Assembly: GCF_026153205.1 (NCBI RefSeq)
Contig: NZ_JAPFBW010000026.1
Span: forward strand, 32,315-96,314
Source of the DNA: Aquabacterium sp. A7-Y
Lineage (GTDB): Bacteria > Pseudomonadota > Gammaproteobacteria > Burkholderiales > Burkholderiaceae_C
Direction: 5' to 3'
Length of the DNA: 64,000 bases
Shown here: piece after piece, positions 261 to 60,118 of the stretch
How positions within the stretch are numbered: position 1 is the first letter of the stretch
Layout: each line of letters opens with the position of its first letter
Program-made: the position numbers and the translations under genes
Notes under the pieces: model-generated
Told to the model about the DNA's origin: nothing
Database searches by the model: none
The model's input: the letters and a program-made list of their open reading frames with translations, nothing else

Positions 261-1457
261 ATGGAACGCGTGGTGATCACCGGGCTCGGCGTCGTCGGCC
301 CTCATGGGGTCGGCCTGGCCCCCCTGCTCGATGCCGAGCGGGTGCAGGGCACCAGCTTCAGCGCCTGGCCGGCCAATGTGGCCCGGCCGCATGACGAGGC
401 CCTCGTGGCCCAGGTGTCGGACCTGCAGGCGCGGCGCTACTTCACCGAGCGCCAGATGCGCCTGGCGGACCGCGCCATGCTGCTGGCCTCCTCGGCCGCC
501 GGCCTGGCCATCGAGGACGCCGGCCTGCACGGGCAGGAGGCCCTGCTGCGCGAGGCCTGCACCTTCCTGGGCACGGCGCGCGCCGAGCTGCCCTCCTGCT
601 ACCAGTTCCTGCGCCCGCAGCTCAACGAGCCGCGCGAGCAGCTCAACGCGGCCGACTTCCCCAGGATCGCGCGCAACATCGCCTGCGGCCAGGTGGCCAT
701 CCGCTTCGGCCTGCAGGGTCCCAGCACGGTGCTGGCCTCCGGGCCGCTGTCCTCGCTGGAGGCGGCCACCCGGGCCGCGCGCTACATCCGCACCGGCCGT
801 GCCACGCATGCCCTGGTGGGCGGCTTCGAGGCCCTGTCACGCTTCGCGCTGTACCACTTCAGCCAGCACCAGCGCGCCCACCTGCAGGCGCGGCATCCCG
901 CCTTCTTCGGCACGGACCCGGGCCTGCTGGTGCCCTCCGAGGGTGCCTGCATGCTGATGCTGGAGTCGCTCAGCTCGGCGCGGGCCCGTGGCGCGCGCAT
1001 CCATGCCGAGATCGAGGGCTGGTGCGCCGGCCGGGTCGGTGATGACGAGAACGCGGCCGAGGTCCTGGCCGAGCGCTGGCAGGCCCTGTCGGCCGGGCAG
1101 GAGCCGCGGGTGCTCGCGCTGTCCTCCGGCGGCGCGACCCGCGCGCATGAGCGGGCCGAGAGCGCAGCGCTGCCGGCCTGGTGCCAGCGCCATCCGCAGG
1201 CCGCCGTGATGGCGCCGCGGGCGCTGGTGGGCGAGGGCGATGCCTGGGCCTCGGCCCTGCAGCTGGCCCTGGCCGCGAACCTGCTGGGCCAGCGCGAGTC
1301 GCTGCCCCTGCATTCGCTGGCCCCCTCGGCCGACGCCTCGGTGCAGCGTGCCGCGAGCGCCCGGCCCCTGCACGGCGACCTGGCTGTGGTCAGCGCGATG
1401 AACGAAACCCTGCACTACAGCATGCTGTCCCTGCGGCGCCCCCCCTCGGAGGCCTGA
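261..1457 (+). CDS. KS-like protein lacking the active-site Cys (chain-length-factor-like partner)
   Basis: KS fold (VVITGLGVV...). The catalytic-Cys position reads GPLSSLEA instead of ACSSSL, and the HGTGT motif is absent. It starts 2 nt after the upstream KS gene. Confidence 0.7.
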
Positions 1458-1461
1458 AGCC

Positions 1462-2247
1462 ATGACGAATTCAGCATCCACTCCCGCCGCCCCGGCGGAG
1501 CGCGCGGTCCTGGTGACCGGCGGCAGCCGCGGCATCGGCCGGGCGGCCTGCGTGGCGCTCGCCGACCTGGGGCAGGTCATCTACGTCAACTATGCGCGCG
1601 ACCGTGCCGCGGCCGACGCCACCTGCGCGCTGGTGGAGCAGGCGGGCGGACGCGCCCGTCCGCTGCAGGGCGCGGTCGAGGACCCGGCCGCCGTGCAGGC
1701 CATGTTCGAGCAGATCCGTGCCGACGGCCACTGGGTCCACACTCTGGTGAACAACGCCGGCATCGTGGCGGACAACATGGCCGCAATGATGACCCTGGAG
1801 CAGTGGCGCTCGGTGCTGTCCACCAACCTGGACGGCGCCTTCCACTGCACGCGGGCAGCGCTGTCGACCATGTCGGTGCGCAAAGCCGGCAGCATCGTCA
1901 ATGTGGCGTCGGTCAGCGGCCTGCGCGCCCAGCCAGGGCAGATCAACTACGCGGCCTCCAAGGCCGGCCTGATGGCCATGACCCGCGGCCTGGCCCGCGA
2001 GATGGGCCGCTACGGCGTGCGCGTCAACGCGGTGGCGCCGGGCTTCATCGAGACCGACATGCTGGAGAGCGTCAAGAGCAGCGAGCGCGGCCAGGCCATG
2101 CTCGACGAGGCCCTGAAACAGCAGGCCGCCCTGCGCCGCGCCGGCAAGCCCAAGGAGGTGGCCTCGGTCATCCGCTTCCTGTGCTCCCCCGCATCCAGCT
2201 ACGTCACCGGCCAGACGATCGTGGTCGATGGAGGTCTCAGTGTCTGA
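1462..2247 (+). CDS. fabG: 3-oxoacyl-ACP reductase (SDR family, FabG-like)
   Basis: [10 protein letters not shown] glycine-rich motif and NNAG; catalytic YAASKAG. About 260 aa. Confidence 0.85.
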
Positions 2248-4318
2248 TCTGCGCGATTTGCCCCTCGATATGCGGCCCCTGCTGCACCGGCTCTTCCAGC
2301 CCATCCGCATCAACCGCCTGGAGCTGCGCAACCGCAGCATGATGAGCTCCATCCACCTCAACCTGGAGGAGTTTCCGGACCAGTTCGAGCGCATGGCGCA
2401 TTTCTACCGGCTGCGCGCCCGCCATGGCGCCGGCCTGATCGTGACCTCGGGTTGCGCGCCCGACGTGGCCGGCGCCTTCGCCAAGGACGGCTTCTCGCTG
2501 AAGTCCGATGCCGAGCTGCCGGCGCACCGCCTGCTGACCGAGGCCGTGCATGCCGAGGGCGGCCACATCGCGCTGCAGATCATGCACTTCGGCCGCGAGG
2601 CCGTGCACGGGCACCTGGTCTCGGCCTCGCCGCTGAAGCTGGCCTCCAGCATCTTCTCGCCGCGCCAGATGGAGGAGGAGGAAATCCTGACCCTGATCGG
2701 CGCCTATGCCGACTGCGCACAGCGCGCCATCGAGGCGGGCTACGACGCCATCGAGCTGATCTACTCGCAGGGCTTCCTGATCCACCAGTTCCTGGCGCGC
2801 GGCACCAACCAGCGCGAGGACCGCTGGGGCGGCTCTCTGGAGAACCGCATGCGCCTGGCGATCGAGGTGGCCAAGGCCGTGCGGGAGCGGGTGGGGCCGG
2901 ACTATCCGGTGATCTTCCGCATCCCCTGCATGGACCTGTTCGAGGGCGGCCTGGACACCGAGGAGGCCTTGGCCCTGATCGAGGCCCTGCTGCCCTACGG
3001 CATCGACCTGCTCAGCGTCAGCATCGGCTGGCACGACTCCTACGTGCCCACGATCGCGATGACCGCGCCGCGGGCCGCCTTCGCCACCGCCACGCGTCTG
3101 GTGCGCCAGCGCTTCCCGGCGCTGAAGCTGTGCGCCAGCAACCGCATCAACGACCCGCGCGTGGCCGAGTCCCTGCTGCTGGACGGCAGCGCCGACATGG
3201 TGGCCATGGCACGCCCCTTCCTGGCGGATGCGGCCTTCATGGACAAGGCCCTGCGCAACGACTTCGACGGCATCAACCCCTGCATCGCCTGCAACCAGAA
3301 CTGCCTGGACTACGTCTTCGCGGGCCAGCCGGTGGGCTGCAGCACCAATCCGCAGTCGGTGCGTCCGGAGGAGGGCCACTACGCCCCCCTGGCGCAGGCG
3401 GTGGACGTGGCCGTGGTGGGCGGCGGCATCGGGGGCATGGCGGCCGCGCTGTTCCTGCGCCGCCGCGGGGCGCGCGTGACCCTGTTCGAGTCCTCGCAGG
3501 CCCTGGGCGGCCAGCTGCTGATGGCGGGCGAGATCCCGGACAAGCGCGAGTTCGCCGGCACCGTGCGCTACTACGGCCAGGCACTGCGGCGCGAGGGCGT
3601 GGAGGTGCTGCTGGGACGCGCCTTCCAGCCCGCCGACGCCCAGCGCTTCGGCCACGTGGTGGTGGCCACCGGCTGCGCGCCGCGCCTGCCCCAGGACCTG
3701 CCGGGCACCGACCTGCCTCATGTGCGCCAGTACAGCGATGTGCTGGCCCAGCAGCTGCCGGTGCTGCCGCCGGTGGTCATCATCGGCGGCGGCGGCGTGG
3801 CCTGCGACATGGCCAAGTACGTCAAGAAGCGCCACGACGAGCGCGAGCACGAGGCCTGGCAGTACCTGAGCAGCCGGGCCGAGCCCGGGAGCCTGCAGGC
3901 CTTCGCCGCCCCCGAGGCGTCCAGTGCCGCGCCGGTGACCCTGGTGCAGCGCAGCAGCCGCAAGTTCGCCATGCGCCTGGGCCGCACCACGCGCTGGATC
4001 CAGATCAAGGACCTGCAGCGTCTGGGCGTCGTGATGCGCAACCGGCTGGAGATCCAGGAGATCACCGCCGAGGGCGTGCGCATCCTGGACAAGAAGACCC
4101 AAGCCGTCGAGCTGCTGCCGGCCCGCACCGTGATCCTGGCCGCCGGCCACCAGCCGCGCAGCGAGCTGGTGCAGGCCCTGGTCGAGCGCGAGGTGCCGCA
4201 CAGCGTGATCGGCTCGACGGCGCTGGAGGCCGACGAGCGGGCAGTGACCAACATCAGCTCGGTCATCGCCTCCGCCTACGAGTTCGCGATGGCCTTCGGG
4301 AACGCCGCGCATGGATGA
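2228..4318 (+). CDS. 2,4-dienoyl-CoA reductase-like NADH:flavin oxidoreductase (OYE TIM barrel, 4Fe-4S motif, FAD/NAD(P)-binding domain)
   Basis: OYE-like N-terminus, [10 protein letters not shown] Fe-S motif and [14 protein letters not shown] dinucleotide fold. This is the FadH architecture. The start is uncertain (ATG 2228 overlapping fabG, or ATG 2273). Confidence 0.75.
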
Positions 4319-5231
4319 GACCCTGCCGCAGGGCCTGTGGCGCCTGCCATGGCCCCGCCTGCGCCGCGCGCTGACCGTGGCCGCCCTGCACCTGCACCAG
4401 TTCCTGTGGCTGGGGGTCTTCCTCGTCCCCTTCCAGCTGGGGCTGCTGCTGGCAGCCCTGGTGCTGGGCATGGTGCTGGTGATCGGCGTGGAGATGGGCC
4501 ACCACCGCTACTTCTCGCACCGCAGCTTCCGCGTCGGGCGCGGCTTCCAGTGCGTGATCGCGCTGTGGGCCTCGGCCTCCTTCGAGCGCGGCATCCTGTG
4601 GTGGGCCAGCATGCACCGCCTGCACCACCGCCATTCGGACACGCCCCTGGACCCGCACACGCCCCTGCGCCGCGCGGGCGGCGGCTTCCTGCATGCCTAC
4701 CTGCGCTGGGCTGTGCACCCGCGCAATGCCGAGCCGGACTACCGCCTCGTCAAGGACCTGCTGGCCTATCCCGAGCTGCGCTTCATCGGCCAGTTCCCCT
4801 ATCTGGTCAGCGCCGCCTATGCGGGTCTGGCCTGGGGCCTGGGCGCCGCGGGCTGGGTGGGCAGCTCGGGCCTGCAGACCTGGGTTTGGCTCTATGCCAT
4901 GCCGGTCACGCTGTGCCAGCAGATCATCTCCGCCCAGGCCACGCTGGCCCACGGCGTGCCGCGGCTGCCGGGGTCCTACCAGCCCCTGCCCTGCAAGGAC
5001 GCCTCGCTCAACCACCGCTGGCTGGGCCTGATCTCCACCGGCGGCGGCTTCCATAACAACCACCACCACTTTCCCAGCTCGGCACGGCTGGGTCTGCGGC
5101 CCGGCGAGTGGGACATCAGCTACGGCGCCATCCTGCTGTTCAAGCGCCTGGGCCTGGTGCACTCGATCAACGTGCCACAACGGGCGCTCGACTACGGCCG
5201 CACCGGCCGCATCGGCACCGACCGATCTTGA
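4311..5231 (+). CDS. membrane fatty-acid desaturase (histidine-box di-iron family)
   Basis: His boxes HRYFSH, HRLHHRHSD and HNNHHHFP, plus TM helices. ATGGATGA start/stop overlap with the upstream gene. Confidence 0.8.
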   Translation: MDETLPQGLWRLPWPRLRRALTVAALHLHQFLWLGVFLVPFQLGLLLAALVLGMVLVIGVEMGHHRYFSHRSFRVGRGFQCVIALWASASFERGILWWASMHRLHHRHSDTPLDPHTPLRRAGGGFLHAYLRWAVHPRNAEPDYRLVKDLLAYPELRFIGQFPYLVSAAYAGLAWGLGAAGWVGSSGLQTWVWLYAMPVTLCQQIISAQATLAHGVPRLPGSYQPLPCKDASLNHRWLGLISTGGGFHNNHHHFPSSARLGLRPGEWDISYGAILLFKRLGLVHSINVPQRALDYGRTGRIGTDRS

Positions 5232-5242
5232 GGAGCAGACAG

Positions 5243-6091
5243 ATGTACGAAGAAGGCCGCGCCTACCCGGTTCGCAAGCTGTCCCTGGATCTGCATGCGC
5301 CCGCCCGGCGCCTGTGGTTCGGCGGCGATGCGTTCCGGACCCACTGGTTCAACTCCCTCTCCCAGGGCCTGCCGCTGGCGGAACGTTATGCCTCGGACTG
5401 TGTCAAGGCAGCCATGGCCCATGTCGACGATCCCGAGCTGCTGGAGCGCAGCCGCGACTTCGTCGGCCAGGAGGCCACGCACAGCTTCCTGCACCGCCAG
5501 TGCAACGAGCAGCTGGAGGCCATGGGCCTGCACTACTGGCTCGACGGCTACACGGCCTGGCGCATGAGCAAGGCCCACTGGCTCAGCTGGCGCAGCGGCC
5601 TGGCCCTGACGGTGGCCTGGGAGCACTTCACCACCATCCTGTGCGAGCACACCCTGGCGCATTCCGGCATCGAGTCCGAGGCCGACGAGCCCTACCGGTC
5701 CCTGTGGATGTGGCACTGCGCCGAAGAACTGGAGCATTCGGCCCTCTCGCACGACCTCTACCTCGCCTGCCGAGGGTCCTATCTGCGCATGCTGCTGATC
5801 TACCTGTATGGATCCATGCTCTTCGTGACGGACTTCCTCACCCAGGCCTTCTTCAACATCTACCAGGACGGGCAGCTGTTCAAGCTGGCGACCTGGCGTG
5901 ACGTCGCGCGCTACTTCCTGGGCCGCAAGGGCCTGTTCTGGTATGCGCTGCCGCGCTGGCTGGGATTCCTGCGCCCGGGCTTCCGGACGCCGCGCGGCCA
6001 GCATGCCGCCCTGATCGATGCGGCGCTGGGCGCGCTCAAGGAGCGCCTGCGCATCATCCCCAAGGCCCATGCACAGCGCAGCGCCGCTTGA
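5243..6091 (+). CDS. PF10118-type predicted metal-dependent hydrolase
   Basis: Matches my recollection of the family pattern (FRTHWFNSLS...GQEATHS...WHCAEELEHS). GAGGAG RBS 6 nt upstream of ATG 5243. Confidence 0.65.
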   Translation: MYEEGRAYPVRKLSLDLHAPARRLWFGGDAFRTHWFNSLSQGLPLAERYASDCVKAAMAHVDDPELLERSRDFVGQEATHSFLHRQCNEQLEAMGLHYWLDGYTAWRMSKAHWLSWRSGLALTVAWEHFTTILCEHTLAHSGIESEADEPYRSLWMWHCAEELEHSALSHDLYLACRGSYLRMLLIYLYGSMLFVTDFLTQAFFNIYQDGQLFKLATWRDVARYFLGRKGLFWYALPRWLGFLRPGFRTPRGQHAALIDAALGALKERLRIIPKAHAQRSAA

Positions 6092-6695
6092 GCCGGGCTG
6101 CCTGGCCGTGCATGTGCTGCCGCGCGGGGCCGAGCCCCGGCGCCGGCCAGCCGGCAGCGGGCGCGCCGACCCGCGGGTGAGGGCGCTGCTCGCGGCCTAT
6201 GGCGGCCCGCACCACAACCTCTCGCACAGCGGCGGCTGGCTCTACCTGGCGGTCTCCGGCAGTCCGGTGGGCGTGGACCTGGAAGGCTTTGCCCGCCGTC
6301 GGCATGGCGAGGCCTTCCGCCGCTTCCTGCTGGAGCGGGAGGACCCGCGGGCGGAGCGCGCGCCGGTCGCGCCGGGCTCCCTGGACGAGCAGGCGCTGGC
6401 GGTGCGAGTGTGGTCCCGGCTGGAGGCCCTGACCAAGTGCGAGGGCCAGGGCCTCGACGGCGCGCTGGACCACCTGCGCGTGCCCGCCGGGCCGCTGCCA
6501 GAGCCCTGGTGCGTCGACACCGCACAGGGCCCGCGCTGGCTGCTGGACCTGCCCAGCCCTGCGGGCATGGTGGCCAGCCTGGCCAGCCCGGTCCGCCCCC
6601 GGCATGTCCGCCTGCATGGCCCCGACGACGCGGCGGGCGACACGCCGGGACTGGCCCCCTTTCCTGCCAATGGCATTGATGACTTTCAACAGTGA
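6069..6695 (+). CDS. 4'-phosphopantetheinyl transferase (Sfp/EntD type)
   Basis: LSHSGGW...GVDLE and W..LEALTKCEGQGL motifs. The start overlaps the upstream gene by 23 nt. Confidence 0.7.
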   Translation: MHSAAPLEPGCLAVHVLPRGAEPRRRPAGSGRADPRVRALLAAYGGPHHNLSHSGGWLYLAVSGSPVGVDLEGFARRRHGEAFRRFLLEREDPRAERAPVAPGSLDEQALAVRVWSRLEALTKCEGQGLDGALDHLRVPAGPLPEPWCVDTAQGPRWLLDLPSPAGMVASLASPVRPRHVRLHGPDDAAGDTPGLAPFPANGIDDFQQ

Positions 6696-6700
6696 AAACG

Positions 6701-7867
6701 ATGCAAGCTGAGCGTGATTCCGCAGCCGGCCACTGGCCGCCTCCCGCCCTGCTATGGATGAGCGGGCTGACTGTACCCATGACCGTGGTGGCGTCCTTCC
6801 TCTGGGCGGCCCATGCGCGCCAGCCCGGCTGGGTCTGGCTGGTGCCGGCGCTGATCTACATCGTCATCCCGCTGGGCGACTGGCTGGTGGGCGTGAACCG
6901 GCGCAATCCGACGGCGGCGCAGAAGCAGTCGCGGAGCGCCGAGCGCTGGAGCCGCTGGGCGGTCGAGCTCTTCGTGCCCCTGCAGCTGGCCAGCGTGCTG
7001 GCCGGGGCCTGGCTGGTCTCCGTGCTGGAGCTGCCGCTCTGGGCGCTGCTGGGCGCCGGCCTGGCCGTGGGCAGCGTCAATGGCGTGGGCTTCATCGCCT
7101 CGCACGAGCTGCTGCATCGCCGCTCGCGCTGGGCGCAGTGGGGCGCGCGCTGGGCGCTGGCACCCACCTTGTACGGCCACTTCATGGCCGAGCATGTGCG
7201 CGGCCACCACAAGGCCGTGTGCACCCCGCCCGATCCCACCAGCTCGCGCATGGGCGAGAACTATTGGCGTTATCTCGTGCGCGCCCTGGTCACGGGCTTC
7301 CAGTCGGCCTGGCACATCGAGGCGCAGCGCCTGGGCAAGAAGGGCAAGCCGGTGTGGTCGCTGGAGAACGAGAACTTCCTGGCCTGGTCCGCCTCGCTGC
7401 TGCTGTTCGGAGGCCTGCTCCTGGCCTTCGGCTGGAGCATCCTGCCCTTCCTGCTGCTGCAGGCCGCCTATGGCGTCGTGCTGCTGGAGGTCACCAACTA
7501 CATCGAGCACTACGGCATGCTGCGCAAGAAGCTGCCCAACGGCGAGTACGAGCGCTTCACCCACGCCCATGCCTGGGACAGCAACCACCTGGTCTGCTCG
7601 CTCTTCATCTACCAGCTGCAGCGCCATGCGGACCACCATGTGAATCCCAACCGGCCCTACCACCTGCTGCAGTCCGAGGCCCAGACCCCGCAGCTGCCGG
7701 CCAGCTACGTCACCCTGATGCTGGTGGCCTATGTGCCGCCGCTGTGGTTCCGCCTGATGAACCCCATGGTCATCCGTCACCATGGCGGCGACCTCAGCCT
7801 CGCCAATGTGGACCCGCGCAAGCGCGAGCAGATGATGGCCCTGGCGGCCCGCTGGGAGCAGGCATGA
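6701..7867 (+). CDS. AlkB-like integral-membrane di-iron hydroxylase/desaturase
   Basis: HELLHR, EHVRGHH, NYIEHYG and LQRHADHH motifs. The ORF track starts at GTG 6692; ATG 6701 is more likely. Confidence 0.75.
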   Translation: MQAERDSAAGHWPPPALLWMSGLTVPMTVVASFLWAAHARQPGWVWLVPALIYIVIPLGDWLVGVNRRNPTAAQKQSRSAERWSRWAVELFVPLQLASVLAGAWLVSVLELPLWALLGAGLAVGSVNGVGFIASHELLHRRSRWAQWGARWALAPTLYGHFMAEHVRGHHKAVCTPPDPTSSRMGENYWRYLVRALVTGFQSAWHIEAQRLGKKGKPVWSLENENFLAWSASLLLFGGLLLAFGWSILPFLLLQAAYGVVLLEVTNYIEHYGMLRKKLPNGEYERFTHAHAWDSNHLVCSLFIYQLQRHADHHVNPNRPYHLLQSEAQTPQLPASYVTLMLVAYVPPLWFRLMNPMVIRHHGGDLSLANVDPRKREQMMALAARWEQA

Positions 7868-7870
7868 GAC

Positions 7871-8114
7871 CCGCCAGGCCGCCCCGAAGGCGCTCGCACC
7901 GCAGTGCGCAGCACGGAGGTTACCCAATGAGCCCCGCCCGGCCGCCCCGAAGGGGCTCGCACCGCAGTGCGCAGCACGGAGGTTACCCAATGAGCCCCGC
8001 CCGGCCGCCCCGAAGGGGCTCGCACCGCAGTGCGCAGCACGGAGGTTACCCAATGAGCCCCGCCCGGCCGCCCGAAGGGGCTCGCATCGCAGTGCGAAGC
8101 ACGGAGGTTACCCA
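7871..8114. repeat. tandem repeat, 4 copies of a 62-63-bp unit, each containing GGAGG plus ATGAGC (the ribosome-binding site and start codon of the downstream gene)
   Basis: Direct reading: ATG at 7927, 7990, 8053 and 8115 with identical preceding ...gcaccgcagtgcgcagcacggaggttacccaATGagc. The last copy is 62 nt. Confidence 0.9.
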
Positions 8115-10241
8115 ATGAGCCGCGCCACCCTCAGCCAGCAGTGCCGCGATGCCGGCGACGCCTACTTTATGGCCATGGAGGCCCTGGGGCATGACGTGGG
8201 CATCGAGCTGCGCTGCACCCTGCGCCAGCCCGTGGATCTGGACCTGGCGCTGGCGGCCTTCGAGGCGCTGCTGCGCCGCTATCCGGCGCTGCGCGTGCGG
8301 CGCCAGCCCGACGCGCACGGCGAGGGCTGGTCCTGGCAGGCCCTGGACGAGGCCGGCGCGCTGGCGCTGTGGGAGCGCCAGGCCCGTGCCCTGCGCGATG
8401 GCCAGGCCGGTCCGGCCCTGGGCGAGGGCCTACCCTTGCTGCTGGTGGACCTGCAGGAGCGCACCCTGGTGTTCCGGTCCGACCACACCTTTGCCAATGG
8501 CCGCGCGGCCTTTGCCTGGATCGCCCGCTTCCTCGAACTGCTGCATGGCGAGCAGCCGGCAGCCCTGGCCGGCGCGCCGGCGGCCCGCGGGCCCGTGGCC
8601 TCGCTGCCGCGGGCGCTGGCGCAGTTCATGCGCCAGTCCTGGGCCCGGCGCAGCCTGGGGGCCCATCGGCGCGACCCCGGTGCGCGGCTGCGTCCGGCCG
8701 GGCCGCAGGAGGCCGGCTGGGTGAGCCGCGAATGGACCGTGCCCCTGGCCTCGCTGGAGGCCCTGCTGCAGGGTCATGGCCTGGGCAAGGGCGCGGGCTG
8801 GACGCAGGCGCTCAGCGAGGCGCTGTCCCAGCACCTGCTGGCCAGCCTGCCCGAGCTGCCGGGGCTGCCGCTGCAATGGGCCATCGATCTGCACGAGGCC
8901 TGCGGAGAACCCGTGACAGCCCAGGGCAACTACACGGCCCTGGTCAGCGCCTATGTGGGACGCGAGCACAGCCAGGCACAGCTGGAGCGCCTGATGCAGG
9001 ACGTGCGCCAGGGCCTGGGGCCCGCGCAGGCGCGGCTGATCCAGTTGCAGGCCGCCCGGCGGCCGGCCATGATCCGCTGGTTCTGCCAGAACCTGTGGCC
9101 GCGGCCGGACGGCGCGCCCCGGGCCGCGGCCATGGATCCCGTGCTGACCCTGTCCAATGTGGGCCAGCTGCAGGAGCCGGCCTTCGAGCAGTGGGTGGAC
9201 AAGGCCTCGTTGTGGACCCGCACGCCCTCCGTCTACCTCTCCTGCACGACGGTGGGCGCCCAGGCGACGCTGGCCCTGAGCTTCCCGCGCCAGCTCTTTG
9301 ACGAGGCCCGCCTCTGTGCCAGCCTGGAGGCCTGGGTGGCCCTTGTGCAGCAGCGCAGGGGAGCTGACGAGCATCCGGCCACGGCCCTTGCCGAGGAGCA
9401 TCCGCTGATGCCCCGCCACTTCCAGCTGGACCTGCAGCGCGGCCTGCCGCTGCACTGGAACGGCAGCCCCTTCCGCAGCCAGTTCTTCAATTCCGTGTCC
9501 CTGCTGCTGCCGGCCGGGGAGCGCTGGATCATCGACACGGTACGGCGCACCATCGAGACCCTGCCCGAGCCCCTGCGCAGCGAATGGAGCAGCTACGGGC
9601 GCGACTTTATCGCCCAGGAGTCCATCCACCGGGCCCTGCACCGCAAGTACAACGAGCAGACCACGGCCCAGGGGCTGCAGGACTGGATAGGCGGCAAGGT
9701 GGAGGAGCGCATCACCTGGGGCGAGAAGGGCACGCCCATCAACCAGCTGGCCTCCTCGGTGACCTTCGAGTACATCACGACGCTGTTCTGCACCCGCGTG
9801 ATCCGCGACCCGTCCTGGCTGGACGGGGCCGACCCGCAGATGGCCCGCCTGTGGCTGTGGCATGTCTGCGAGGAGCTGGAGCACAAGCATTTCGTGCTGG
9901 ACCTGTTCCGGGCCGCGGGCGGCGGCGAGTTGCGCCGTATCGCCTGGTTCATCTGGTTCTCCAGCTCCTTCATGAAGGACCTGCACTACCAGCTCTACCT
10001 GTCCCTGCGCGGCAGCGGCCTGCTGTGGCGCTGGCGCACCTGGCGCGATGCCGCGGTCTTCTACTTCGGCCGGCGCGGCATGACCTGGCTCTTCATAGGC
10101 GGCAGCCTGCGATTCCTCAGTCCCTGGTTCCGCCATCCCGAGGGTCCCGAGGACAGGCTGGCGCGGCAGTGGTTCCAGAGCAATCCGACGGCCTTCGTGG
10201 AAGGGCGCGCGGTCCCCTCGGCCGCAGGCAGCCGGGCATGA
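8115..10241 (+). CDS. two-domain protein: condensation/WS-DGAT-like acyltransferase N-domain (HxxxNG variant) fused to a PF10118 metal-dependent hydrolase domain
   Basis: N-domain has SDHTFANG in place of HHxxxDG. The C-domain is clearly paralogous to the 5243-6091 product (FFNSVSLLLP...GQESIHRALH...WHVCEELEHKHF). Confidence 0.65.
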   Translation: MSRATLSQQCRDAGDAYFMAMEALGHDVGIELRCTLRQPVDLDLALAAFEALLRRYPALRVRRQPDAHGEGWSWQALDEAGALALWERQARALRDGQAGPALGEGLPLLLVDLQERTLVFRSDHTFANGRAAFAWIARFLELLHGEQPAALAGAPAARGPVASLPRALAQFMRQSWARRSLGAHRRDPGARLRPAGPQEAGWVSREWTVPLASLEALLQGHGLGKGAGWTQALSEALSQHLLASLPELPGLPLQWAIDLHEACGEPVTAQGNYTALVSAYVGREHSQAQLERLMQDVRQGLGPAQARLIQLQAARRPAMIRWFCQNLWPRPDGAPRAAAMDPVLTLSNVGQLQEPAFEQWVDKASLWTRTPSVYLSCTTVGAQATLALSFPRQLFDEARLCASLEAWVALVQQRRGADEHPATALAEEHPLMPRHFQLDLQRGLPLHWNGSPFRSQFFNSVSLLLPAGERWIIDTVRRTIETLPEPLRSEWSSYGRDFIAQESIHRALHRKYNEQTTAQGLQDWIGGKVEERITWGEKGTPINQLASSVTFEYITTLFCTRVIRDPSWLDGADPQMARLWLWHVCEELEHKHFVLDLFRAAGGGELRRIAWFIWFSSSFMKDLHYQLYLSLRGSGLLWRWRTWRDAAVFYFGRRGMTWLFIGGSLRFLSPWFRHPEGPEDRLARQWFQSNPTAFVEGRAVPSAAGSRA

Positions 10242-11563
10242 GCGAGGCCGCGCACTGGCAGGCGCCGCCGCACGCCCCGCAGGCCATGGGCTGGCGGGAC
10301 GTGACCTGGCTGCGCATGGACGCGCCCTGCAACCGCATGGTCATCCACTGGGTGGCCTTCCTGGAGCAGTCCCCCAGCCTGGCCCAGTTGCACGAGCTGG
10401 TGGGCCGGCGCCTGCTGGCCTATCCCCGCTTCGCGCAGCGGGTCCGGCGCGGCCTGCTGGGCTACCGCTGGGAGCCCGTGGCGAGCCTGGATCCCGCCTA
10501 CCACCTGCAGGAGCGCGTGCTGCCGCAGGCCGTGGATGCCGCGGCGGTGGAGGCCAGCCTCGCCGACTGGGTGCCGGAGGCGTTGGACCCGCAGCGGCCA
10601 CTGTGGCAGTGGCGGCTGCTCCGATCCAGTACGGACGGGACGGCGGCACTGATCGTCCGACACCACCACTGCATGACGGACGGCGACGGCCTGGTGCATA
10701 TGCTGCGCCACCTCAGTGACGGCGCCCGGCAGGCCGTGGGCCACCCGCGCCTGGAGGACCCCGTCCGCGGTCGCTGCCGCCATGTACCGCCGCCATCGGC
10801 CCTGGGTTCGGCCCTGTCGCGCTGGCTGGGCACGGCCTGGCAGGTGCTGCGCCTGAGTCTGCTGCGACGGGACTCCAGGATGCACTACAGAGGTCGACCC
10901 GGGCGACAGAAGTGCCTGATGAGCAGCCCTTCGTTGCCTTTGGACCAGTTCAGGCAGGTGGCCCGTCGTCACGGCGTTACCATCAACGACGTTTGGCTGG
11001 GCGTGGTGGCCGGCGCGCTGCGTCGGCACGCGCAAACGCTTGGCTGGAGTGTCGACGACACGCAGCTGCGCGCTGCCGTCACCTACAACCTGAGGCAGCG
11101 CGAAGATGCCGCCATGATGGGCAACCACTTCACGCTGACGGCCCTCGCCCTGCCGACACACTTGGCAGAGGCCGGGCAGCGGCTGAGAGCGGTGAGTCAG
11201 GGCATGCAGGCAATCAAGACGTCCTGTCACCCCTATGCCACTCTGGCGCTCATGACGTGCATGGGCTGTTTGCCGCGCTTTCTGCAGAGCCTGGCAATGG
11301 GACTCTTCACGAGCAAGGGCTCCCTGGTGTCGACGAACTTGCAGGGGCCAGCCGAGCACCGCTACCTAGCGGGCGCTCGGATCCGCGAGTTTCACTGTTG
11401 GGTTCCTCAGACTGGGCACACGGCGCTGGGTCTGATGCTGAGCACCTATGCCGGTCAGGCAGTGATGAGCGTGTCCTGCGACGCGAAGCTGGTGCCTCAG
11501 CCAGGACTGCTGCTGTCGGCGCTCCAGGAAGAGCTACGGTTGCTGCTGGTCGCGGCGACATAA
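10238..11563 (+). CDS. wax ester synthase / diacylglycerol acyltransferase family (WS/DGAT)
   Basis: HHHCMTDGDG (HHxxxDG) motif. About 440 aa. ATGA overlap with the upstream gene. Confidence 0.75.
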   Translation: MSEAAHWQAPPHAPQAMGWRDVTWLRMDAPCNRMVIHWVAFLEQSPSLAQLHELVGRRLLAYPRFAQRVRRGLLGYRWEPVASLDPAYHLQERVLPQAVDAAAVEASLADWVPEALDPQRPLWQWRLLRSSTDGTAALIVRHHHCMTDGDGLVHMLRHLSDGARQAVGHPRLEDPVRGRCRHVPPPSALGSALSRWLGTAWQVLRLSLLRRDSRMHYRGRPGRQKCLMSSPSLPLDQFRQVARRHGVTINDVWLGVVAGALRRHAQTLGWSVDDTQLRAAVTYNLRQREDAAMMGNHFTLTALALPTHLAEAGQRLRAVSQGMQAIKTSCHPYATLALMTCMGCLPRFLQSLAMGLFTSKGSLVSTNLQGPAEHRYLAGARIREFHCWVPQTGHTALGLMLSTYAGQAVMSVSCDAKLVPQPGLLLSALQEELRLLLVAAT

Positions 11564-11755
11564 GTTGCGCAGCCTGGTATACGTCCTTGCGGAAAGCGTC
11601 CAAGCGGCCCACGTTGCCCGGCATCGCGTCGTCGTTGAAGCAGCCCTGGACCACGGGCCGCAGCCAGCGGCCAACCAAAGGGATCGGCCCGTGCATGCGA
11701 GACAGCAGCGCCTGTCGAATCGCCTCGAGGCTGGCGCGCCGTTGCGAGTCTGTCC

Positions 11756-12346
11756 TCAGCGCACGCGCTGCCGGCGGCGGGCCGCGAGGCCGACGCCCGC
11801 CAGGCCGGCCAGCATCAGCGCATAGGTCTCGGGCTCCGGCACGGCAGCCGTGACCTTGATCGACGAATAGTCGCCCAGTTCTGTCACACCCTGCAGGTGC
11901 AGCATCATGGTGCCGTCGAAGGACGCGGCGGTCACGCCCGAGCCGGTGATGGTCCACACCGCCTGGTCTGTCGACAGGAAGCGGTCGGAACCCGGCTTGT
12001 TGCTGGTCGGAAAGGCGATTTCCCAGTCGAAGTCATAGGACGCGTTGACATGCGCGCCATAGACCGGGGCTTTCTTCACCGCGTTGCCGCTGACGGCGCC
12101 GACGCTACCTTGCGGACCGTTGAATTCGATCCGGCTCAGAAAACTGGCGTTGCCCAGGCTGGCGAAGTCGCCCTGCAAGGTGAACCGAGCGCCGCCGGCG
12201 ACGTCTTCAACCGTCAGGGTCGCGAGCGGCTGGACCTGCTCGCCGCCCACCAGTTGGGTAAAGCTATAGGTGTAGCTGGCGGCCTGGGAAGTACCGGCCG
12301 CGGTGAGGGCCAAAGCCGAAACCGCAGCGTAAAGCATTGCCTTCAT
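11756..12346 (-). CDS. PEP-CTERM sorting-domain secreted protein
   Basis: N-terminal signal peptide. C-terminal VPEPETYALMLAGLAGVGLAARRRQ. GGAAGGA RBS. Confidence 0.75.
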   Translation of the reverse strand: MKAMLYAAVSALALTAAGTSQAASYTYSFTQLVGGEQVQPLATLTVEDVAGGARFTLQGDFASLGNASFLSRIEFNGPQGSVGAVSGNAVKKAPVYGAHVNASYDFDWEIAFPTSNKPGSDRFLSTDQAVWTITGSGVTAASFDGTMMLHLQGVTELGDYSSIKVTAAVPEPETYALMLAGLAGVGLAARRRQRVR

Positions 12347-12625
12347 CGGGGATCCTTCCTGAGGAAACATGGGAAATGGTCCCGACAATTATCGGGGCGA
12401 GCAACACGCCCTCATCGTAAGAATCCGTGGCGAACCGCAACTGTTGGCAGGAGCCGACAGCGTGGGGCAGGCCCGTACTCCCTCGATCTGCACTCCTAGG
12501 GATGGCTTCGCCTCAAGGCCCTCCGGCATGCTGCGGCCTTGCACGTGCAGCTTCGATGTTTCCCGAGCGCCGGCTTCGGCGCCGGCGTGGCTCCTTCATT
12601 TCGACACTTTCCTTTTCAAGAAGTC

Positions 12626-13801
12626 ATGATGAGAAATCATTACCAGGGAAAAACGATTCTGATCACCGGCGCGACCGGCTTTATCGGTTCGGTGCTGCTG
12701 CAGACCCTGCTGACGAAGCTGCCGGGGCTCAGGAAGGTGTACTGCCTCTACCGAAACGCTCCGAGTCTTCAGGACCCGCGCGTCACCTGGATCCGGGGCA
12801 ACACCTCGGAGCCTGCGTGGGGCCTCGGCGAAGACACGCTGAACCGCCTTCGTGAAGAGGTGCACTTCATCTTTCATCTTGCGGCCCACACGCGCTGGGA
12901 CCTCGGGCTGCGCGACCAGGTGCTTGCGAACACCCTCCCCAGCCTGTACGCGGCCGAGCTTGCCGCCAGCTGCAAGCAGCTGGAAAGCTGCGTGATCACG
13001 TCGAGCTATTGGGCCGCCTGCCACATCAAGGGCAGCTCGCAGATCGCCGAGACGGTGTTCCAGGACTATCGCGGCGAAGCGGAACTGGCCGAGATCCTGT
13101 CCAGCCCGTCCAAGGCCCGCCTCGCGGAATGGCCCAATGCCTACTCCTATGCGAAGAACCTCGCGGAGCGGCTGGTCCATCAGCGCTATCCGCAGCTGCC
13201 GGTCGTCATGGCGCGCGTCACGTCGGCCTGCGGAGCGTGGCAGTTCCCGTTCCGTGGCGCGTGCCGCTACGACAATGCCTTGCCGGCCTTCTTGCGGTCG
13301 ATCGCGCTGGGCGGGGTGCGCGCCTTCCCCGAAAGCATGCGCTTGGCGATCAATGACGCCATTCCGGTCGACCTGTGCGTCAATCTTCTACTGGCGAACG
13401 CCATCGAGCATGCCGGCGGCAGTTTCACGGTCATCCACTGCTCGTCCGCCAAGCAGAACCTGCCGCGCCTGGGTGCCATCGCGGAGATGGCCGGGCCGAT
13501 CGACTATCACCCGACTTATGACGACCTCTATGCCGCCTTGTCGGAACTGGACAACCCGCGGGTGGCCAAGCTCAACCGGCTGATCGTGGACACCTACCGG
13601 TTGGCGCTGGAGGAAAAGTACGTCTTTCTCGACAGCCATGCCAGGCGCCCCTTGCGCTGGATGAGCGCCGAGGACCAGGCGCTCTTCCCGATCGACGTGA
13701 ACGGCGTGGACTGGTCCGAGCTGATCGTCAGCATGATCGATCGCATGAAAGCCGCGACCCGGGAGGTCCCGACCGGCCCGCGGCAAGGTATCGCCGCCTG
13801 A
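12626..13801 (+). CDS. fatty acyl-CoA/ACP reductase-like NAD(P)-binding protein (male-sterility/FAR domain)
   Basis: ILITGATGFIGSVLL Rossmann motif and FAR-like layout. Confidence 0.7.
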   Translation: MMRNHYQGKTILITGATGFIGSVLLQTLLTKLPGLRKVYCLYRNAPSLQDPRVTWIRGNTSEPAWGLGEDTLNRLREEVHFIFHLAAHTRWDLGLRDQVLANTLPSLYAAELAASCKQLESCVITSSYWAACHIKGSSQIAETVFQDYRGEAELAEILSSPSKARLAEWPNAYSYAKNLAERLVHQRYPQLPVVMARVTSACGAWQFPFRGACRYDNALPAFLRSIALGGVRAFPESMRLAINDAIPVDLCVNLLLANAIEHAGGSFTVIHCSSAKQNLPRLGAIAEMAGPIDYHPTYDDLYAALSELDNPRVAKLNRLIVDTYRLALEEKYVFLDSHARRPLRWMSAEDQALFPIDVNGVDWSELIVSMIDRMKAATREVPTGPRQGIAA

Positions 13802-57595: not shown

Positions 57596-60118
57596 ATGCC
57601 TCTGACCCTTCCCCAACTCGAACGCCACCTGTTCAAAGCCGCCGACATCCTGCGCGGCAAGATGGACGCATCTGAGTACAAGGAATACATCTTCGGGATG
57701 CTGTTCCTCAAGCGCTGCTCGGACGTGTTCGAGCAGCGACGAGAAGAAGTCATCAAGCTTGAGTTGGAGACCGGCAAGAGCCTGGTCGACGCGTCAAAGT
57801 CAGCCGAGAACCCGCGGTGGTACAGGAAGGAGGGCTCATTCTGGGTGCCACCGCACTCTCGGTACATGTATCTGCTCAACGACGCCCACCAGAACGTCGG
57901 CGATTACCTCAACAAGGCGCTCACCGGCATCGAGACGGCTAACACCAGCCTCTACGATGTGCTGGAGCATATCGACTTCACGCGCAAGGTCGGCCAGAGC
58001 AAGATCCCCGACATCAAGCTGCGCCAGCTGATCACGCACTTCGGCATCCACCGCCTGCGCAACGAAGACTTCGAATTCCCCGACCTGCTGGGTGCCGCCT
58101 ACGAGTACCTGATCGGCGAGTTCGCCGACTCGGCCGGCAAAAAGGGAGGCGAGTTCTACACCCCGCGCTCGGTGGTGCGGATGATGGTGCGGCTGATCAA
58201 GCCCGAACTGAAGCACGACATCTATGACCCCTGCTGCGGCTCCGGCGGCATGCTGATCGCGGCCAAGGAGTACATCGACGAGCACGGCGAAGACGGCCGC
58301 AAGGCCAACCTCTTCGGGCAGGAGTTCAACGGCACGGTGTGGTCCATTGCCAAGATGAACATGCTGCTGCACGGCATCAGCACCGCCAACCTGCAGAACG
58401 AGGACACGCTGGCCGAGCCGCAGCACGTTGAAGGTGGGGAGCTGATGCGCTTCGACCGCGTGCTCACCAACCCGCCGTTCTCGATCAACTGGGGCAACAC
58501 CGAGAAGAACGCCGACGACACGCCCGCCTGGGCACCGAAGTTCCCCGAGCGCTTCCGCTTCGGCCAGGTGCCGCTGGGCGCCAAGAAGGCCGACTTGATG
58601 TTCCTGCAGCACATGCTGGCGGTCACCCGCGACCGCGGCATGATCGCCACCGTCATGCCGCACGGCGTGCTCTTCCGCGGCGGCGAAGAGAAGACCATTC
58701 GCGCTGGCGTCATCGATGCCGACCTGCTCGAAGCCGTGGTCGGCGTCGCGCCCAACCTGTTCTACGGCACCGGCATTCCCGCCTGCATTCTGGTGTTGCG
58801 CCAGCAGGTGCAAAGCGGTGCCCGCCGCGTCAGCGGCAAGCCGCCCGAGCGCCAAGGCAAGGTGCTGTTCATCAACGCTGACCGCGAGTTCTTCGAAGGC
58901 CGGGCGCAGAACCACCTGCTGCCCGAGCACATCGAGAAGATCGTCACCACCTTCGACGAGTTCCAGGCCGTGCCCGGGTTTTCGGCCATCGTCGACAACG
59001 CCACGCTGAAGGCCAACGACTACAACCTGAACATCCGCCGCTACGCCGACAACGCCCCGCCACCCGAACCGCACGACGTGCGCGCCCATTTGGTGGGCGG
59101 CGTGCCCAAAGCGGAAGTCGACGCGAAGGCCTCGCTGTTCGCTGCGCACGGTCTGAACCCGCTGGACCTGCTCGTAGAGCGCCCGAACGACCCTACTGGC
59201 AAGTACTTCGACTTCCGCCCTGAGCTCACGAAGCGTCAGGACCTCAAGCCCGCCATCGAAGGCAACGCCGGGCTCGTTGCCAAGGAGGCGGCCATCCGCG
59301 CAGCCTTCGAGCAGTGGTGGCAAGCCCACAGCGCCCGCATCACGGCGCTGGCCGGGCAAATGGACAACGCGGCCAGCCTCGTCGCCCTGCGCAACGACCT
59401 GCTGGCCAGCTTCAGCGAATCGCTCGAAGCCATCGGCCTGCTCGATCCCTTCCAGGTGCGCGGCATCGTGGCCGGCTTTTGGTACCAGACCAAGTACGAG
59501 TTCCTCACCCTGATGGCGCGCGGCGCCAAGGGGGTGGCCGACGCCTGGCGCACCAGCATCGTCACCGCGCTGGAAGACAAGGCCAGCAAGGAAAGCCCGC
59601 TGGAGCACAAGCTTGTCAAGTTCCTGATGAGCGACTTCGTCGAGGCGATCAACGAACTGGAGGCGAAGAAGGCCGAGTTGGACAGCCAGATCAAGGCGGC
59701 CAGCCCCAAAGACGCCGAAGGTGAGGACGGTGCCGATGCGGCGACTGGTGACGAGGCCGCGGATGGGGATGGCGACGAGGAGAACCCGGTCGAGGAAGCC
59801 CAACTCAAGACCTGGAAGAAGGAACTCGCCGCCGTCAAGAAGCAGCTCAAGGCCAAGAACGACAGCTTCAAGCAGCATATCAACGCCGCCGTCGATGGCC
59901 TCTCACCCGAGCAGGCGGCCAATCTGCTGCTGACCATCCTGCACAACGACATGCGTGCGATCGTCGAGCGCTACATCGCCGCTCAACGCAAAGCCATCGT
60001 CGTCGCGTTCGACAACTGGTGGGCCAAATACCGCGTGACGCTGACCGAGATCAAGGACAAGCGCGATGCGGCGGCGCAAGCGCTGCAGGGATTTTTGAAG
60101 GGGTTGCGGTATGTCTGA
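57596..60118 (+). CDS. hsdM: type I restriction-modification N6-adenine DNA methyltransferase subunit HsdM with long C-terminal extension
   Basis: HsdM N-domain, NPPF motif ([11 protein letters not shown]). 840 aa. Confidence 0.85.

Follow-up and report, generated by a model that had tools for sequence, protein, structure and literature searches.

A rare gene fusion joining a condensation-type domain to a PF10118 domain in an AlkB- and wax ester synthase-containing cluster of Aquabacterium sp. A7-Y

Results

We analyzed a 64,000-nucleotide stretch of the Aquabacterium sp. A7-Y genome (contig NZ_JAPFBW010000026.1; here called the window, with coordinates counted from its first nucleotide), focusing on a single open reading frame (ORF) of 708 amino acids at positions 8115 to 10241. 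The ORF lies on the forward strand, as do all but one of the neighboring genes described below. Its G+C content at third codon positions (0.92) is of the coding type, and by exact match it encodes WP_265405696.1, whose sole annotation is "metal-dependent hydrolase." Pfam recognizes a single domain, PF10118, at residues 433 to 675 (positions 9411 to 10139; E=6.5e-48), and the score of 164 bits against a gathering cutoff of 33.2 places the protein in this family. Residues 1 to 430 had no Pfam or NCBIfam match. Residues 1 to 410 (positions 8115 to 9344) form a stand-alone-type condensation-superfamily domain without a Pfam model of its own (N-domain), separated from the PF10118 domain (C-domain) by a linker of residues 411 to 432 (positions 9345 to 9410). 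An initial annotation made from the sequence alone had described this ORF as a fusion to a C-terminal PF10118 domain, and the present results bear this out.

Used as the query in a word-indexed search of 5.8 billion proteins, the N-domain retrieved only three relatives (87, 79, and 68% identity). Each is 709 to 710 amino acids long and has PF10118 at its C terminus and the linker in frame. The 90% cluster of the fusion protein holds eight sequences, drawn from NCBI, ENA, and Logan assemblies. Since the fusion recurs in three homologues and in this eight-member cluster, it does not stem from a frameshift or a faulty assembly. When the codons of the window gene were compared with those of its 79% homologue, the ratio of nonsynonymous to synonymous substitution rates (dN/dS) was 0.27 in the N-domain and 0.17 in the C-domain, which places both halves under purifying selection. 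The linker of 22 residues, which is also poorly conserved in the alignment of relatives, is relaxed (dN/dS, 0.76). When one genome per species (185,579 species) was scanned for the pattern [DE]HTF[AG]NG[RK][AGS], built on six close sequences, only three genomes contained it. The best 120 PF10118 profile matches were single-domain proteins of approximately 270 to 320 amino acids (one exception had 418), named "metal-dependent hydrolase" at most, and the fusion architecture therefore does not extend beyond this clade. The fusion is a genuine gene, and it is rare.

Collimonas humicola and Pseudoduganella rivuli carry the two halves as separate genes. A condensation-like gene (approximately 32% identity) is followed, after approximately 80 to 200 nucleotides, by a PF10118 gene, and the stop codon and intergenic gap fall at the position of the linker. 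The separate PF10118 protein is 46 to 47% identical to the window C-domain and approximately 33% identical to PF10118a, a free-standing paralogue encoded at positions 5243 to 6091 of the window. The pair lies in recognizably the same gene cluster, with genes for a ketosynthase (KS), chain length factor (CLF), ketoreductase (KR), Old Yellow Enzyme (OYE) reductase, desaturase, PF10118a, and AlkB-like protein. The adjacency of the separate genes indicates that the Aquabacterium-type gene arose by the fusion of two neighbors and that the PF10118 duplication is older.

The N-domain belongs to a small family. With an N-domain profile (E<=1e-3), an exhaustive HMMER search across 1.84 billion cluster representatives yielded 48 proteins, nearly all free-standing and 400 to 450 amino acids long; just one of the 48 is of the fused type. 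The motif DHTFANG (residues 123 to 129; positions 8481 to 8501) is, by family alignment, the equivalent of the HHxxxDG active-site motif, with H124 in the place of the catalytic His. Across an alignment of 44 of the 48 proteins, this His is invariant (44/44), G129 is conserved in 42/44, and W74, W135, D187, D258, G271, N272, and S347 are, like G129, at least 90% conserved. The family motif reads [N/S/D]-H-x-[F/L/W]-x-N-G, with Asn at the position of N128 in 36/44 members and Asp in only 4/44. Compared with HHxxxDG, the first His is thus D in the window protein (N, S, or D in the family) and the Asp is Asn, whereas the second His is kept. The initial annotation was right that the Asp is missing, but the absent His is the first one and not, as it had stated, the second, which is the catalytic one. 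AzeD likewise lacks the first His only, and the AzeD preprint reviews the catalytic role of the second.

Individual Pfam scans of the 44 relatives matched PapA_C in 28 (best, 8e-10), Condensation in 11, and WS_DGAT_cat in 2. In the PDB, the family profile matched AzeD (8S6L; 5.5e-11), the C-domains of PvdL (5e-9), PapA5 (3e-7), and further C-domains; a search with a profile of four N-domain sequences returned nothing meaningful. The family's NHxFxNG aligns with PHIIADG in AzeD, HHLVVDG in PvdL, and the HHxxxDG of the wax ester synthase/diacylglycerol acyltransferases (WS/DGAT). The N-domain has the two-lobed, V-shaped fold typical of chloramphenicol acetyltransferase-like proteins. AzeD is its top match in both structure and sequence, yet the two are only 16% identical; the X-domain/Oxy complexes 6m7l and 4tx3 are also among the fold matches. 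Absence of a CoA-dependent acyltransferase fold, which the initial annotation had considered as grounds for abandoning its view, is contradicted by the PDB matches of the family profile. Its description of the N-domain as condensation-like holds, but not the more specific one as WS/DGAT, because the domain resembles condensation, PapA5, and AzeD proteins and has no PF03007, PF06974, or TIGR02946 match. A paralogous relationship between the N-domain and the neighboring WS/DGAT was rejected, as the hhalign probability of 2 to 4% was not significant. Within the condensation/CoA-dependent acyltransferase superfamily, the N-domain is of the stand-alone type and has AzeD and PapA5 as its nearest relatives; the xHxxxNG branch to which it belongs is new, rare, and without a Pfam model.

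Other members of this family are found beside assembly-line genes. In a Chromatiales metagenome-assembled genome, the condensation-like gene follows a nonribosomal peptide synthetase (NRPS) C-A-T-R module, a thioesterase, and a FAAL-acyl carrier protein (ACP) gene and has no PF10118 partner. Another member adjoins a type I polyketide synthase (PKS). As a rule, the family thus accompanies carrier-protein assembly systems. A further rare architecture occurs in a 650-amino-acid member on a short contig (P0036; L018, positions 1 to 1953), which has a hydrophobic N-terminal extension of approximately 225 residues resembling a membrane domain.

The C-domain and PF10118a are 34% identical (E=7e-45) and have the blocks FFNSVS/WFNSLS, QExxH, and WxWHxxEELEH in common, as expected of the paralogues that the initial annotation took them to be. 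Among 126 PF10118 sequences, the following residues (window numbering) show conservation of 99% or more: E469, E502, H505, H509, E552, H583, E586, E587, E589, and H590. E469 (positions 9519 to 9521; 100%) and E552 (positions 9768 to 9770; 99%) are putative metal ligands on predicted helices 1 and 3. An ExxH(xxxH) motif, E502-S-I-H505-R-A-L-H509 (positions 9618 to 9641), is 100% conserved, and an HxxxExxH motif is formed by H583-VC-E586-E587-L-E589-H590 (positions 9861 to 9884). The ligands of the di-iron N-oxygenase AurF are Glu101, Glu136, His139, Glu196, His223, Glu227, and His230 (PMC11775713), the last three corresponding to the HxxxExxH motif. The PF10118 core pattern, E(33)ExxH ... E(31)HxxxExxH, has these seven ligands in the same order and at similar spacing, and all positions of the AurF-like set E...ExxH...E...HxxxExxH are present in the window C-domain. 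A low-confidence model would place them on four helices.

Among 18 PF10118 members, six had long, co-linear matches to the Pfam AurF model that stayed below the threshold (best, 8.1e-5 and 22 bits versus a cutoff of 29.6; residues 51 to 204 on profile positions 88 to 241). Six further members had sub-threshold matches to Rubrerythrin and one to COQ7. All three are ferritin-like di-iron families. A PDB sequence search with the window C-domain returned nothing meaningful, and we found no function for PF10118, COG3687, or UCP07580/IPR016516 in the literature. Given the conserved AurF-like ligand layout and the sub-threshold matches to AurF, Rubrerythrin, and COQ7, we lean toward a ferritin-like di-iron oxygenase or oxidase rather than a hydrolase for the C-domain. 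The name "hydrolase" for PF10118 is accordingly doubtful as far as sequence comparison can tell.

The fusion gene is part of a cluster that occupies positions 261 to 13801 of the window. A CLF-like ketosynthase (261 to 1457), a KR (1462 to 2247), and an OYE/FadH-like reductase (2228 to 4318) come first; an ACP, a FabA-like dehydratase, and a KS lie upstream of the CLF-like gene, as observed in the relative locus L001. They are followed by an SCD1-like membrane acyl desaturase (4311 to 5231) and PF10118a, which is always downstream of an SCD-like desaturase. Next is a 4'-phosphopantetheinyl transferase (PPTase; 6018 to 6695). As listed, this ORF begins 74 nucleotides inside the 3' end of PF10118a (6018 to 6091), and its true start may be further downstream; Collimonas has an unrelated 109-amino-acid ORF without a Pfam match at this position. 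Directly upstream of the fusion gene lies a homologue of the AlkB-family alkane 1-monooxygenases (6692 to 7867; PDB 8F6T, E=1.7e-114). Downstream, the stop codon of the fusion overlaps the start of a canonical WS/DGAT gene (10238 to 11563) as ATGA. The initial annotation had already noted the intact HHHCMTDGDG motif of this protein, and its PF03007 and PF06974 domains agree with that assignment. The last gene encodes a fatty acyl reductase (NAD_binding_4; 12539 to 13801), which in L001 is at the opposite end of the cluster. Between it and the WS/DGAT gene is a gene for a PEP-CTERM-anchored secreted protein on the reverse strand (11756 to 12388).

The order of SCD-like desaturase, PF10118a, (PPTase), AlkB-like, fusion, and WS/DGAT genes was the same in all three relatives of the fusion. 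The cluster is conserved in Aquabacterium-like metagenome contigs and partly in C. humicola and P. rivuli (loci L001, L003, L016, L017, and L021). Our literature search found no paper on this combination of genes. Elsewhere in the window, positions 57596 to 60118 encode the N-6 DNA methylase subunit of a type I restriction-modification system (WP_265405745.1).

The junction between the AlkB homologue and the fusion gene differs from that of the relatives. In all three of them the AlkB-like gene overlaps the fusion start by a plain ATGA without an insert. In the window, a 63-bp tandem repeat (4.2 copies, 96% match; forward strand, positions 7864 to 8126) sits exactly between the AlkB stop and the fusion start. 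Each unit contains GGAGG-N7-ATG, and the last copy therefore provides both the Shine-Dalgarno sequence and the start ATG of the fusion gene. An 84-codon ORF (7864 to 8118) runs through the array and has ATGA overlaps to both the AlkB stop and the fusion start; because the fourth copy lacks 1 nucleotide, this ORF is not in frame with the fusion. The 63-bp unit had no further occurrence within the window, and RNA folding of the repeat revealed no structure beyond that of shuffled sequences (z=-0.04).

PF10118 is widespread, with 458 profile matches among 8,000 scored candidates in Proteobacteria and Actinobacteria. The free-standing PF10118 protein closest to the window C-domain (52% identity), PF10118b, is encoded directly after an AlkB-like gene in a variant cluster (L021/L022). 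Of the three PF10118 paralogues in this variant (GCA_043727255.1; L021, positions 3639 to 8089; L022, positions 4316 to 8766), two form a tandem behind the desaturase gene and one comes right after the AlkB-like gene; a condensation-like gene and WS/DGAT are both absent. In clusters of this type, PF10118 therefore tracks the membrane di-iron enzymes (desaturase/AlkB) rather than acyltransferases. On the Acinetobacter haemolyticus plasmid NZ_CP139049.1 (L014, positions 2859 to 10459), a PF10118 gene lies in a Tn3-flanked module beside a CYP153-type alkane hydroxylase operon (AraC, ferredoxin, P450, and FAD reductase); a TetR regulator, a BtrH_N protein, and two PaaI thioesterases are nearby. 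This PF10118 gene is present on at least 54 Acinetobacter plasmids. On a Ralstonia plasmid, PF10118 is found beside genes for an FAD oxidoreductase and an alpha/beta-hydrolase, overlapping the latter. The contexts of distant PF10118 genes, and of short contigs with condensation-like members, gave no hint of a substrate.

Discussion

We propose, with a probability of roughly 40%, that the fusion is a bifunctional oxygenase and acyltransferase with a tailoring role in a rare lipid/polyketide cluster of the Burkholderiales, where it would act after the AlkB homologue encoded upstream. This cluster would build and oxidize a long alkyl or acyl chain, on which the AlkB and PF10118 di-iron domains would place oxygen functions. 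The C-domain would probably be an AurF-type carboxylate-bridged di-iron oxygenase or oxidase acting on the same lipid, and it would probably work with the AlkB-type hydroxylase encoded just upstream. With H124 as the general base, the N-domain would most likely transfer an acyl chain bound to a carrier protein or CoA to the hydroxyl of a long-chain product. As with PapA5, the acyl donor would probably come from a carrier protein, here the cluster ACP. The condensation-type domain and the WS/DGAT would then esterify the resulting hydroxyls, and the fusion would channel the oxidized intermediate to the site where esters form. The substrates and the sequence of steps are themselves part of this proposal.

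Several observations weigh against this proposal. On the side of the C-domain, the window sequence gives no match to the AurF model, so that the link to AurF is transitive through other PF10118 members; a sequence search of the PDB with the PF10118 profile brings up no ferritin-like protein; and a full-length AF2 model from a four-sequence alignment had a pLDDT of 42, giving no confident structure of this domain. The connection of the window N-domain to the Condensation and PapA_C models is also transitive through its relatives, as none of the Pfam models of the clan (Condensation, PapA_C, or WS_DGAT_cat) matches the domain itself at E<=0.1 or E<=1. To our knowledge, a change of Asp to Asn in the motif is without precedent among characterized members of the superfamily. 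Among relatives with solved structures the closest is AzeD, a dehydratase and not an acyltransferase (AzeD preprint). Gene context is likewise not uniform. The L021/L022 cluster has PF10118b directly after the AlkB-like gene without a condensation-like gene, and the two activities are therefore not obligatorily coupled; elsewhere, PF10118 genes are often solitary with a TetR regulator next to them.

The example of AzeD raises a different possibility, in which the N-domain removes water from an intermediate hydroxylated by the di-iron domain or by AlkB, so that the net product is a double bond (an alkene or polyene) and no ester is formed. We consider this unlikely. Identity to AzeD is only 16%, and according to the AzeD authors it is not known if dehydratases occur among the remaining stand-alone C proteins. 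Moreover, PapA_C is the commonest Pfam match among the relatives, and family members lie beside FAAL-ACP and PKS loading or offloading genes, which fits acyl transfer. As a known system, AzeD, a Pseudomonas aeruginosa protein of the "C_standalone" clade, keeps the Asp (PHxxxDG) where the N-domain has Asn, and its substrate is an azabicyclic NRPS product, whereas the window protein is encoded in a lipid cluster and fused to PF10118.

The model of the initial annotation, a WS/DGAT-like ester synthase fused to a metal-dependent hydrolase that couples ester formation with ester or thioester cleavage or editing, also seems improbable to us. In its favor, the family bears the name "metal-dependent hydrolase" in both Pfam and NCBI, a PF10118 gene overlaps the alpha/beta-hydrolase gene on the Ralstonia plasmid, PF10118 lies near PaaI thioesterases on Acinetobacter plasmids, and the N-domain has an acyltransferase fold. 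The model is thus partly supported, in that the fusion and the acyltransferase-type fold are real, but the AurF-like ligand layout makes the hydrolase part doubtful.

The N-domain could alternatively, though with low probability, be a noncatalytic docking platform, comparable to the NRPS X-domain that recruits Oxy P450s, which binds the acyl-ACP of the cluster and presents the chain to the fused di-iron oxygenase. The X-domain/Oxy complexes among the fold matches, the departure of the motif from HHxxxDG, and the presence of an ACP and a PPTase in the cluster are consistent with such a role. A pure scaffold is nevertheless a poor candidate because of the invariant His and the other highly conserved polar residues. 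The dN/dS of 0.27 and the fact that most family members are free-standing without a PF10118 partner argue in the same direction. Lastly, an artefact of sequencing, assembly, or frameshift joining two genes, which the initial annotation had named as a possible refutation, can be dismissed. Collimonas and Pseudoduganella do carry the halves as separate genes, but the same uninterrupted ORF, with the linker in frame, is present in four divergent sequences that come from independent assemblies.

The bifunctional oxygenase-acyltransferase that we favor would differ from the known systems it resembles. PapA5 (PDB 1Q9J), the phthiocerol dimycocerosyl transferase, has a canonical HHxxxDG motif, stems from a different phylum, and lacks a PF10118 partner; the window N-domain itself has no match to the PapA_C model. 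The WS/DGAT enzymes (Marinobacter Ma2, PDB 6CHJ, and the neighbor in the same cluster) share the superfamily fold with the N-domain. In comparison to the AurF/CmlI ferritin-like di-iron N-oxygenases (Pfam PF11583), PF10118 has the additional invariant residues H509, E586, and E589 and a hydrophobic C-terminal part, and its context is lipid and alkane metabolism rather than arylamines. NRPS X-domain/Oxy P450 and interface-domain/beta-hydroxylase pairs likewise couple a C-fold domain to an oxygenase acting on a carrier-tethered substrate. These X- and interface domains have degenerate active sites and are coupled noncovalently, whereas the window fusion combines an invariant His with a covalent partner.

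Both superfamilies were known before. What is new is the fusion architecture in one small clade, the xHxxxNG branch, and the indication, drawn from sequence, that PF10118 may be an AurF-like di-iron family in lipid pathways centered on AlkB and desaturases. PF10118 has no characterized member, and its name is probably wrong. The fusion, together with the adjacency in Collimonas and Pseudoduganella, provides Rosetta stone evidence for a link of PF10118 with a condensation-type enzyme, an AlkB hydroxylase, and wax ester genes. It points to a concrete biochemical setting for the family, made up of O2, the ACP of the cluster, and substrates with long alkyl or acyl chains. The analysis also defines a rare, unmodeled branch of the condensation superfamily near the recently described AzeD clade, and it draws attention to an unstudied lipid gene cluster with type II KS/CLF, AlkB, and WS/DGAT genes. 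Only tentatively would we extend this to PF10118 as a whole, which would then be a large family under a wrong name, its members being AurF-like di-iron oxygenases that work on long-chain alkyl substrates beside membrane AlkB or desaturase enzymes. Here such an oxygenase would be joined to an xHxxxNG enzyme as an "oxidize-then-acylate" or "hydroxylate-then-dehydrate" module leading to undescribed ester or olefinic lipids. The latter variant, if true, would be a new route to C=C bonds.

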